A stretch of 64,000 bases of DNA, taken from the IMG/VR virus record IMGVR_UViG_3300045977_000087. The stretch is one strand, 5' to 3'. The position numbers are program-made. Below are positions 42,001 through 45,000 of this stretch, in pieces. How positions within the stretch are numbered: position 1 is the stretch's first letter; each line of letters begins with the position of its first letter. This DNA is from a virus (Duplodnaviria > Heunggongvirae > Uroviricota > Caudoviricetes).

Positions 42001-45000
42001 AGCTAAAGCAAGGAATCTTTGGTTACCTGAAAGGCTACATGATGAGGGGATTAAAGACCCTTCTGATTGTATAGCACAAGACAGCCCTTTTTTCATTAAA
42101 TTTCTAAACACTTTTACATGAATCCTTTAGATAGAATCCATTCAAGTTGGGAGCCTCTTCTTCATTATCTAAACCAAGAAAGCTTCCTACACTTTAAGTA
42201 TGAAATTCTACCCAATATTCTTTATTACCCTGAAGATAGGAATAATATCTTTAGAGTTTTCTCCATGCCTTTACAGGATATTAAGGTAGTAATCCTTGGC
42301 CAAGACCCCTATCATGGTAGAGGTCAGGCTACAGGACTTGCCTTTGCTGTATGTCCAATGACATCTACCCCTCCAAGTCTTAAGTTTATCCATCAGGAAT
42401 TATATGGTATTGAAGAGATACCTGCAATATGGAAAACACTTGAGCACTGGGAAGAACAGGGAGTTTTTCTCCTAAATACAGCCCTTACTGTAGAATCAGG
42501 CAGACCAGGAAGCCATTTAGAATATTGGAATGAATTCATACAACAAGTGATTGCCTACATAGGCAGAAACCATCCATGTATTTGGCTCCTTTGGGGTCAA
42601 AAGGCACAGAGATTTATGTTTAATCTTCCAGCAAAATCTCTATTTAATGTGCAGGGATACAACATGGATACTATTACCCAAATCCCTATCAGTGAAGATT
42701 ACAACTATGTGTTAAGGGCAGCACACCCTGCTGCTGAGGCTTATCAGAGTAATGCTGGCTTCTTAGGGTGTAACCATTTTAAGTTTGCCAATATTATTCT
42801 ACAAAAGCAAAGAAAAAAGATTATTAATTTTTAACACTAAAGTATATGAGTACTGACAGCACAGCTGTAGAGTTAGCCAGAGAGATAACTCTATACAATG
42901 TTAGAGGTGGAAACCTCACAAAAATTCAGTCTTTTGCCAGAACTTGGGGAGAGTTAAAATCAGAGGTCAGAAAAGCTGGCTTTGATACTGACAGGTCCTT
43001 AGTTACTGAGTCAATAAACAAGACTGATTTGGTTAGTGACCTTGCAGTTTTGCCTACAGGTCCTTTCAGATTGTATCTCAGACCTAAGGAGGTGAAGTCT
43101 GGGTTAATGGACAGAAAGGAATTGTTTGCAGAAATCAAGGCCCATATTACAGCTCATCCTGAGGATAAGCAACTGTTTGTAATAAATGGTTGTAATATGA
43201 CTCAGTTATCCACATCCAAACTTCAGGAGTTATATGACTCTCATATTCTCATGGGAAAGGGAAAAGCCACCTCTTCTTCACCTTCAGCTTCTGCCTCATC
43301 TTCTTGTGGTGCTACATCTTCTACTTGTATAGAAGACAAGAAAAAAGACAAGAAGAAGAAGAAAGACAAAAAGAAAGGCAAGAAAGACAAGAAGTCTCAC
43401 TTCAATGAGCCAGCTTGTGACCCTGACTATGACCCAGAGTATGACCCAGAATATGGGGCAGAAGAAGAGGAGTATGAAGAAGATGAATCTCCTGTTATCT
43501 TTGCACAACAAGCTCTTCAGCTTATCCAACAAATTCCTACCTCAAAGGAAAAGGTTAATGCTGAAACAGCTATCCAAAAACTTATTGAGGCCTTGACAGG
43601 TGTAGAGCCTGTTGAGACTGAAGAAGAAATCTGTGCAAGAGAAGCAAGAGCCATCTTTGGGTAACAGTAATTTAAGCCCTGCAGAAATGTGGGGCTTTTA
43701 ATCTTTTGCTTATGAATATAGCCAACAACACCAATGCCTCTGCAGGAATTTGGGCAAATATTATAGAGGGTATAAATCTCAATGGTCTTGCCACAAGTGA
43801 CAGGATACTGAGAAGGTTAGTAAGAAAGGGAAGAGTAGTCTTTGCTGAAGAGTGCTTGAGAGAATCTGACTTGCCACAAATCTTTAATATTGTCCACACA
43901 CTAAAAGAGCATTATGGTGACAACTTTGATGCTACCTTAAGGTATCATGGACAAAATATGTATGAGCTTCAGCTCAAGAGTATTTATCCTAAGGTAACAA
44001 TAAGGAACTCAAAGGACATGGAGATTCACATTACTGACTTAATTGTTGTGCATCCTTTTGGGTGTAGGCTTTATCCTAATGAGAATAAAATCTTTTATCC
44101 TGTAAGATTTCAAGGTACAAGACTAAGTGCCAGTGAACTTCAGTTCCAAAGTAGATATCTTCATAGTCATTTACCCTCTTGGAGTGTAGGTACATCTAAT
44201 AAACTCCACCCTTTTACAACAGGCTCCTTTTGCTTAGGTGCAGATTTGCTTTCAGTAATGCTTACAGAGTTTGAATCAGAGGCCAATATCAATGCTGCCC
44301 CTATCAACTTTGAAAGGTATGAAGCAATGCTCTATGCCATAGACAGTTATGTAAGGTGGGAATCACTTGAAGGAGTACCACATTTTAGGATGCAGAATGT
44401 CAGCAATAAAGGAAACATGGTAACTAGCTTTGCCTCTTATTACACCAAGACCTTTATTGATGCCCTAAAATCAAGAGAAAGAGTTGACTTTGATTTCTAT
44501 ATCAGTGAGGGGAAAATCCATATTGATGCTACAGAGAAAACTATTGACCTTGTTAGGAGAATTATACTTGAAGATATGGATGCAGGAGCAAGAACTAATC
44601 TCTTATGTGTATTTGACCCTTTCACAAGGAGTTATTTCTATAGAGAAAAGACTACTTCTCAGGCATATAACTTAGGTTTATTTGAAGAGAGGGAGCACTA
44701 CTTCACTATCTTTAGAGGAGAGAAAAAAAGATTTAAAATCATCAGGGACAGGCAGGTTAATGTCAAGGTCAAAGATGAAGATTGTTCAATTAATCCATAT
44801 TTTTTAAAAGATGTCTTTAGAGAACTCCAAAATAGACTTCACGAGACACAAGTACTCCAGAGTCGATATAGAGCAAAAAGTAAGATTAGAGATACCAGAC
44901 AAGGTACTTCATAAAATCCAATACTTATGCAAGAATATTCCAAGAGTAGAATGGTCAGGTGCATTATTCTATAGTGTTAAGGGAACCATAAGGGACTTGA

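Follow-up and report, generated by a model that had tools for sequence, protein, structure and literature searches.

In a stretch of 64,000 nucleotides from the tailed-phage record IMGVR_UViG_3300045977_000087 (Caudoviricetes; the whole stretch is referred to below as the window), the gene at 42846-43664 on the + strand encodes a protein of 272 amino acids that is followed by genes for an E2-like protein, a JAMM/JAB metallopeptidase and an E1-like adenylating enzyme. It is reasonably likely that this protein is the precursor of a ubiquitin-like protein (a pro-Ubl), which would be cut after glycine 86 by the JAMM peptidase and then activated and conjugated. Residues 1-86 would form one beta-grasp unit ending in K84-S85-G86, and residues 87-272 would be a C-terminal extension. 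The case for this reading comes from the predicted fold, from a K-[S/A]-G motif that is invariant in the family, from homologues that stop just past it, and from the strict linkage of the gene to enzymes carrying JAMM and E1 catalytic motifs.

Predicted fold of the ubiquitin-like protein

The open reading frame (ORF) is complete, with 272 codons plus the stop, from ATG to TAA. Its N-terminal 135 residues match phrog_15560 (5e-25), and an exhaustive HMMER search (E<=1e-3) returned 553 homologous cluster representatives, so the ORF is more than a chance one. The size range of the family rests on the 150 representatives listed, most of which have about 190-300 residues while a few are shorter or longer. 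A word-index homology search gave one match with the full protein, where low-complexity words were dominant, and none with the N-terminal 140 residues. The nearest named relatives are proteins of the Flavobacterium psychrophilum phage FpV4 and of the Steigviridae phages cr111_1 and cr128_1. One alignment of 138 homologues supplied the conservation columns and was also the input for AlphaFold2.

The AlphaFold2 model has a mean predicted local distance difference test score (pLDDT) of 82. Residues 12-80 (42879-43085) form a single beta-grasp at pLDDT 96-98, with strands at 12-18, 24-29, 51-55 and 74-80 and a helix at 34-43 in beta-beta-alpha-beta-beta order, which is the grasp fold of ~70-80 residues that defines the ubiquitin-like superfamily; Foldseek and conservation agree with this assignment. 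The top 50 PDB matches listed by Foldseek were all of the ubiquitin fold, mostly Ubl, UBX, ISG15, ubiquitin, NEDD8, SUMO and archaeal ubiquitin domains, with a few Ras-binding and kindlin/FERM subdomains. Typical target-normalised template-modelling scores were 0.55-0.70 for single-domain targets, with E-values from 1e-3 to 2e-2, and identity to the ubiquitin-family matches was 11-18%. The last strand runs into a flexible tail, P80-K-E-V-K84-S85-G86 (43083-43103). Residues 81-89 have no secondary structure by DSSP, and the block 81-90 has a pLDDT of 71.

Residues 90-139 (43113-43262) are modelled as helices 90-103, 105-111 and 123-139 at pLDDT 92-96. A first, sequence-only reading of this DNA had taken the protein to be a tandem of beta-grasp domains, with the second at about residues 90-135 and closing in MGKG. 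The three helices occupy that region, no second Ubl appeared among the Foldseek matches listed, and MGKG is unconserved and lies in alignment columns that are almost all gaps. According to the model the protein thus has one Ubl domain and not two, in contrast to the tandem arrangement of ISG15 or Type I BilA. No Pfam or PDB sequence match was found for the three-helix domain. A SAP/HeH identity, guessed for it from the sequence pattern, was rejected, as there was no SAP match in 30 domain sequences and no Pfam or PDB profile support.

The odd segments that the sequence-only reading had listed are real, as is the ORF itself. Residues 140-215 (43263-43490) are a disordered low-complexity linker (pLDDT about 46-65), Ser/Ala-rich and carrying poly-Lys, DPDY/DPEY and acidic segments; TSSSPSASASSSCGATSSTC lies at 142-161, KKKDKKKKKDKKKGKKDKK at 165-183 and DPDYDPEYDPEY at 192-203, and there is an acidic run as well. 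The family-alignment columns here are almost all gaps, which marks the Ser-rich stretch, the poly-Lys and the DPDY/DPEY repeats as a disordered insert particular to this lineage. Short tandem repeats in the DNA underlie the poly-Lys and DPDY/DPEY stretches. The protein closes with a C-terminal helical domain, residues 216-272 (43491-43661), modelled as helices 216-228, 234-251 and 259-271 at pLDDT 85-97, in which a conserved acidic terminal helix (...E-E-x-L-A-R-E-A-x-x-[LMI]-x-G) ends as ...REARAIFG.

The K-S-G tail and the variable extension

The only invariant columns in the alignment are K84 and G86, which frame a K-[S/A]-G motif just past the last strand (K-S-G codons 43095-43103). Columns conserved in at least 90% of the sequences are R12, T19, W34, L37, L62, L69, P70, F74, N117 and T119. 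That K84 and G86 are invariant in an unstructured tail of lower confidence is what one would expect of residues recognised by an enzyme and not of a structural core. G86 has the character required of a conjugatable Ubl, namely a conserved glycine that ends a flexible tail and is either terminal or can be exposed by a peptidase.

For a comparison of loci, 80 related viral contigs were collected and their ORFs re-called (individual loci are cited by L numbers). The beta-grasp with K-[S/A]-G is the sole part common to all re-called homologues. In eight loci, on seven distinct metagenomic contigs, a stand-alone Ubl of 77-106 amino acids stops one residue past the glycine, with the endings ...KTKSGK (L050), ...KVKSGF (L051), ...KMKSGK (L056), ...KVKSGI (L059), ...KIKSGK (L060), ...KVKSGR (L071 and L072) and ...QTKSGE (L077); that of L004 stops two residues past it (...KSGLN). 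On sequence grounds these forms look like a classical Ubl precursor. Elsewhere the extension past the glycine is 21-22, 62-89, 116 or 156-172 residues long, reaching 186-204 in the window protein and FpV4, and the three-helix domain is not present in the stand-alone and short-extension homologues. From the stand-alone homologues and those of varied length it follows that the extension is variable and dispensable, while the junction is always at the glycine. The sequence-only reading had proposed to check whether homologues end at GG past the second Ubl-like domain; the stand-alone ones end at K-S-G plus 1-2 residues past their sole Ubl domain.

The same comparison bears on whether the glycine at the extreme C-terminus, G272, might be the one that the E1 adenylates, in a manner akin to Cap2 acting on the C-termini of CD-NTases, with the JAB enzyme trimming 1-3 residues in homologues. 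A single terminal glycine on a helical tail had indeed been singled out earlier as a feature of the protein. The terminal-helix motif is kept in many long-form homologues, usually with 1-3 more residues, and a glycine is common near the end of long forms (found at the aligned position in 94 of 151); in the window protein, FpV4 and P0102 it is the very last residue. The closest homologue ends in IFGK, and most others in G[YFL] plus 0-3 residues or in DFSDVRR, the latter in one large subgroup, while cr111_1 ends in ...AMR, cr128_1 in ...FDFV and crAss001 in ...FDFVD. The glycine is thus neither invariant nor terminal in most members, stand-alone and short forms lack this whole region while their loci have every enzyme, and in the model G272 ends a confidently predicted helix and not a flexible tail. 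G272 was accordingly rejected as the activated end, and this alternative is very improbable.

Some further observations concern the extension. Five of the loci with a stand-alone Ubl have, after the stop codon of the Ubl gene, a small helical ORF of ~42-51 amino acids, which in some overlaps the stop as TAATG (L004 4406-4591; L051 6231-6467; L056 6237-6448; L060 6240-6439; L071 1530-1733). On visual inspection the small ORFs have a K-K-[IL]-[ID]-D-[FY]-F-like motif in common and resemble a short helical peptide that in L052 and L055 is fused straight onto K-S-G. The small ORFs and the fused peptides may be split and fused versions of one piece, by gene fission or fusion. In L064 (5353-6099) and L065 (6001-6711) a second exact K-V-K-S-G occurs ~60 residues past the first, with a segment giving a sub-threshold SAP match between the two; cleavage may occur at this second motif too. 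In L033 (5968-6405, at a contig end) the ORF past K-S-G runs into primase-like sequence (…YSYNDFSEARKKVYFP…), which probably reflects a chimera or misassembly at the end of the contig and not a real fusion.

Linked genes and their enzymes

The E2-like, JAB and E1 genes lie 3' of the Ubl gene, in that order and on the same strand, in 52/52 loci, the count being restricted to loci with at least 3.6 kb of DNA downstream of the Ubl gene. The E1 gene is within about 3 kb of the Ubl gene, an association expected of a conjugatable Ubl. Cultured crAss-like phages also carry the four-gene module; in crAss001 it runs from gp79 (Ubl, KIKSG and a helical extension) through gp78 and gp77 ('metalloprotease domain') to gp76 ('ThiF'). 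The sequence-only reading had placed the gene at the BilA position, next to a JAB gene, and had named homologues unrelated to neighbouring E1/E2 genes in other genomes as a refutation; the gene does stand in a BilA-like first position, and the linkage holds in all 52 loci.

The JAMM/JAB protein (44811-46010, + strand; 399 amino acids) has a catalytic domain at about residues 36-150, followed by a C-terminal part of ~250 residues. Its motif, E47 and H112-S-H114-x7-S122-x2-D125, is invariant in 49 sequences and supplies the zinc site of a JAMM enzyme. Prok-JAB is the best Pfam match in nine of 10 homologues (6e-5 to 0.06), the generic JAB model of PADLOC matches at 1e-3, and the best PDB profile matches are CSN5 and Rpn11. 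It is the only peptidase in the module.

The E1-like adenylating enzyme (45907-46677, + strand) is a single-domain protein of 256 amino acids with a Pfam ThiF match (3e-13). Its invariant residues are GGxGGIGS, D75, D77, N83, K98, D136, R141, R169 and C203 in an alignment of 18 sequences (44-45 of 45 in a larger set). The best PDB match to its profile is UBA5 (2.4e-14), followed by MccB, PaaA, SAE2, TcdA, ThiF, UBA3, MoeB and Cap2. MccB (1.5e-11) and PaaA (6.7e-11), which rank second and third among PDB families with the profile and come first with the single sequence, bring to mind a pathway like those of ribosomally synthesised and post-translationally modified peptides, in which an E1 of this type would modify the peptide terminus or a side chain of the Ubl protein and the peptidase would release a small bioactive product. 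Against this, what is conserved in the substrate is a folded beta-grasp of 75 residues and not a short core peptide, the MccB/PaaA match spans only the nucleotide-binding half (profile positions 25-98), a 256-residue E1 is too small for an MccB-like N-terminal peptide-clamp domain (an argument from size only), and the module also contains an E2-like protein. Such a pathway is highly improbable here.

The E2-like protein (43706-44914, + strand; 402 amino acids) gave no sequence match in any search made. For most of the N-terminal ~220 residues the structural model is good, and the fold predicted there is UBC/UEV-like. N101, R139, H155, C176, G178, E219, S220, G223 and P225 are invariant in 52/52 sequences, forming a C176-x-G178 motif and, with S154 (51/52), an S154-H155 pair. 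The protein is probably E2-like.

The weakness of the E2 assignment is one reason to consider that the Ubl is a sulfur carrier of the ThiS/MoaD/QbsE/CysO type, on which the E1 would make a glycine thiocarboxylate for thiolation of, for example, a nucleotide, tRNA or DNA base; in that case the JAMM peptidase would only trim the C-terminus, as in QbsD/QbsE and Mec+/CysO. Bacterial trios of Ubl, E1 and JAMM without protein conjugation do exist, as in QbsCDE and CysO/Mec+. The E1 is moreover small, single-domain and of the ThiF/MoeB type, with ThiF, MoeB, Uba4 and TcdA among its PDB profile matches, and the module is set among genes of DNA metabolism. Yet no rhodanese, cysteine desulfurase, sulfur-insertion enzyme or other sulfur-transfer gene was found in the module or its neighbours, no ThiS Pfam match was obtained, and the tail of the Ubl is K-[S/A]-G and not G-G. 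In addition, a protein of predicted UBC/UEV-like fold with an invariant cysteine lies between Ubl and JAB in every locus, and the best match of the E1 is UBA5, an E1 of conjugation. A sulfur-carrier role is therefore unlikely.

Proposed maturation and conjugation

An E1 needs a free C-terminal carboxylate. The internal glycine G86 could thus be used only after cleavage. In Ensifer aridi, BilC cuts pre-BilA past its conserved glycine (G97|A98), and BilA homologues with up to 9 extra residues are known (10.1101/2023.09.26.559546). Similarly, in Citrobacter a functional Ubl is released from the BubAB Ubl-E2 fusion through cleavage by the JAB domain of BubCD (PMC11601596). Cleavage by the JAMM peptidase is proposed because of these two precedents, because G86 would need to be cut free and because the module has no other peptidase. 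The sequence-only reading had left three options, a precursor processed by the adjacent JAB enzyme, a Ubl fused to a targeting domain, or the conjugation target itself; the comparative data favour the first, with the predicted site moved from the end of a second domain to K84-S85-G86.

The proposed pathway would begin with the JAMM peptidase cutting the G86-L87 bond and exposing the glycine carboxylate. The UBA5-like E1 would then adenylate G86, possibly forming a thioester through C203, and the Ubl would be handed to C176 of the E2-like protein. From there we infer that it would be joined to lysines of phage or host proteins in the replication phase of infection, and the same JAMM enzyme could undo the modification. 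The released fragment of 186 residues would consist of the three-helix domain, the Lys-rich and acidic disordered linker and the helical C-terminal domain.

Several observations weigh against this pathway. The phage Ubl has K-S-G in place of G-G, and its tail exceeds that of ubiquitin by three residues. Residue 86 of the E1 (N-L-G-G-Q, 83-87), a glycine invariant in all 45 phage E1 homologues, lines up in the UBA5 alignment with the arginine of N-L-x-R-Q; this E1 may for that reason have a chemistry unlike that of other E1s. Further invariant arginines (R33, R141 and R169) might compensate for the missing one. No E3 or target candidate was identified. Finally, long-form members conserve the extension as well, so that the unprocessed fusion could be the functional form.

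That last point leads to an adaptor that is never cleaved, a full-length Ubl scaffold like Rad23, Dsk2 or UBX proteins, whose beta-grasp would dock onto the E1, JAB or E2-like proteins. The helical, Lys-rich extension would then hold these at DNA or at replication proteins, and the substrate of the enzymes would be a different one. The conserved long-form extension (N117 and T119) is confidently folded, UBX domains are among the top fold matches, and there are weak DNA-binding hints in the poly-Lys of the window protein, the sub-threshold SAP matches in L064 (0.22) and L066 (0.052) and an H1-like match in L081. The extension-less stand-alone forms (K-S-G plus one residue) nevertheless retain the full enzyme set, the sole invariant residues lie in the exposed tail and not on a docking surface, and the module has no other candidate substrate bearing a conserved C-terminal glycine. 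An uncleaved adaptor is improbable.

If the protein is a pro-Ubl, residues 87-272 probably have their own function once released, since they are conserved within the long-form clade; alternatively, the extension may keep the Ubl inactive until it is processed. Weak hints point to a DNA or replisome role of the extension. Besides the poly-Lys of the window protein, Lys-rich, H1-like linkers occur in L053, L076 and L081 (HC2 3e-4, below the Pfam threshold), and the extensions with SAP matches are of a different type from residues 90-139.

Relation to known systems

Among characterised systems, Type II BilABCD of E. aridi has the same gene order (Ubl, E2, JAB, E1) and likewise a Ubl of one beta-grasp with a conserved glycine followed by extra residues (10.1101/2023.09.26.559546). 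There, pre-processing of the Ubl after the glycine by BilC has been shown by experiment, and the cascade runs through cysteines; the phage equivalents are predicted. BilA extensions are of at most 9 residues, against 1 to about 200 in the phage family, folded domains included. BilD is a pseudo-dimeric E1 of about 450-500 amino acids with a mobile Cys domain, in contrast to the 256-residue one-domain E1 of the phage, and Bil is found in a bacterial defence locus whereas the phage module sits in the replication block of a lytic-type phage. PADLOC gave no match to BilA, BilB or BilC, and one to BilD at E = 0.0025 over 75 residues only. Comparison by hhalign of the E2-like alignment with E. aridi BilB returned a probability of 0.2.

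With Type I Bub (PMC11601596) the module shares a Ubl that is translated fused to a large C-terminal partner and would share a JAB enzyme that frees the Ubl before activation, as was shown for BubCD acting on BubAB. In Bub, however, the Ubl is fused to the E2 and the JAB to the E1, while the phage has four separate genes and a partner that is a non-enzymatic helical and disordered module. Bub uses Tyr and Ser oxyesters, whereas the phage E1 and E2-like protein have invariant cysteines (C203 and C176), though the invariant S154-H155 pair of the E2-like protein may be compared with the catalytic Ser/His in the Bub E2. A DUF6527 (BubE) protein, which marks Type I Bub, was absent from the eight neighbours scanned with Pfam. 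In sequence terms, then, the module is not a member of Bil or Bub, though it would work alike.

In eukaryotes, the precursors of UBA52, RPS27A, NEDD8, SUMO and Atg8 are extended at the C-terminus by anything between a single residue and an entire functional protein, and the glycine becomes exposed when a dedicated peptidase takes the extension off. The phage protein is alike in being made with a C-terminal extension that starts past a glycine. It differs in having no sequence relationship to these precursors, in its K-S-G in place of G-G, in a predicted JAMM metalloprotease in place of a Cys protease and in a partner that is non-ribosomal.

The short one-domain E1 also recalls the UBA5-UFM1 system and the minimal homodimeric E1s ThiF and MoeB, the adenylation domain of UBA5 being its best PDB match. 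That match covers the Rossmann half only, and the arginine of N-L-x-R-Q is replaced by the invariant glycine. No UFM1-like or UFC1-like sequence relationship was found. A gut-virome preprint remarks in passing on a phage protein family that structurally matches UBA5 (10.64898/2026.03.05.709809).

Source phage and genomic context

The gene content of the window is that of a crAss-like phage. It comprises a major head protein, a portal protein and a large terminase, with PHROGs matches as strong as 1e-204, as well as a PolA-type polymerase and giant virion/RNA polymerase-like proteins. No near-identical phage DNA was found among GenBank phages. The module lies in a replication block on the + strand with helicases, an ATPase, a primase (41087-42121) and a uracil-DNA glycosylase (42118-42834). 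In the same block, a 156-amino-acid ORF at 39725-40195 (+ strand) contains 17 consecutive Ser and is Ser/Thr/Glu-rich throughout; FpV4 and the cr phages have small hypothetical genes at homologous positions.

Between the Ubl and E2-like genes lies a terminator-like hairpin with a 10-bp stem and a T-rich tail (43674-43707, + strand). The hairpin itself (43674-43697), directly past the Ubl stop codon, has a minimum free energy of -18.6 kcal/mol (z = -3.2) and is the first-listed, longest-stem + strand site of a scan of 41000-48500. Of 53 distinct related Ubl/E2-like intergenic regions, 49 have an equivalent hairpin, though with a divergent stem sequence. This conservation suggests attenuated read-through, by which the Ubl transcript would outnumber those of the enzymes.

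The E2-like and JAB ORFs overlap by ~100 nt (44811-44914) as called from the first start codon, and a similar overlap occurs in many related loci. The true JAB start may lie further downstream, because conservation of the JAB protein begins only near residue 36. In L015 (9008-10274), ~1.2 kb separates the JAB and E1 genes, which elsewhere abut or overlap, and the E1 match is shorter there; the gap may reflect the insertion of an element or an E1 that is split.

Past the E1 gene, with a 4-nt overlap, is a gene for a 357-amino-acid protein (46674-47747, + strand; phrog_15446, 3e-6) with an acidic C-terminal half and no Pfam match. It is a conserved neighbour in closer relatives only, with homologues 3' of E1 in about 20 loci, while distant phages have a different ORF of ~220-270 amino acids at this position (crAss001 gp75). 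Its membership of the module is uncertain, and it could be a lineage-specific partner or target.

Two narrow peptide-pattern scans of 185,579 species-representative genomes gave no true bacterial or archaeal relative, a result of limited sensitivity that does not prove absence; their sole candidate, L086, failed every hidden Markov model check. No published description of the module was found in the full-text literature on crAss-like phages, a scope that leaves subscription-only papers outside.

Significance

To our knowledge, all experimentally characterised prokaryotic Ubl systems that contain an E2, namely the Type II cyclic oligonucleotide-based antiphage signalling system (CBASS; Cap2/Cap3), Bil and Bub, are bacterial defences against phages. 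Here the phage itself carries what would be the full toolkit, within a replication module and strictly kept across 52 related contigs, and by its sequences the module would be a new phage-borne variant of Bil/Bub-type systems. The wider proposal, on which we consider the evidence to be evenly balanced, is that a large clade of crAss-like phages of Bacteroidota, including the cultured crAss001, DAC15 and FpV4, runs a complete Ubl conjugation cascade of its own during genome replication, with the JAMM enzyme freeing from a polyprotein both the tag and a possibly DNA-associated effector. If true, this would be the counterpart of Bil, Bub and CBASS in a virus of bacteria, and it might remodel host or phage replication proteins or counter host Ubl-based immunity.

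The presence of the module in cultured crAss001 (gp79-gp76) makes the idea directly testable, and the annotations 'hypothetical protein', 'metalloprotease domain' and 'thiamine biosynthesis protein ThiF' given to its genes need revision. The natural series of homologues, from one extra residue to about 200, pinpoints the predicted maturation site and shows a route to Ubl fusion precursors, and thereby bears on how ubiquitin-fusion genes arose. Should conjugation be confirmed, its targets might concern the control of replication, the takeover of host proteins or counter-defence.

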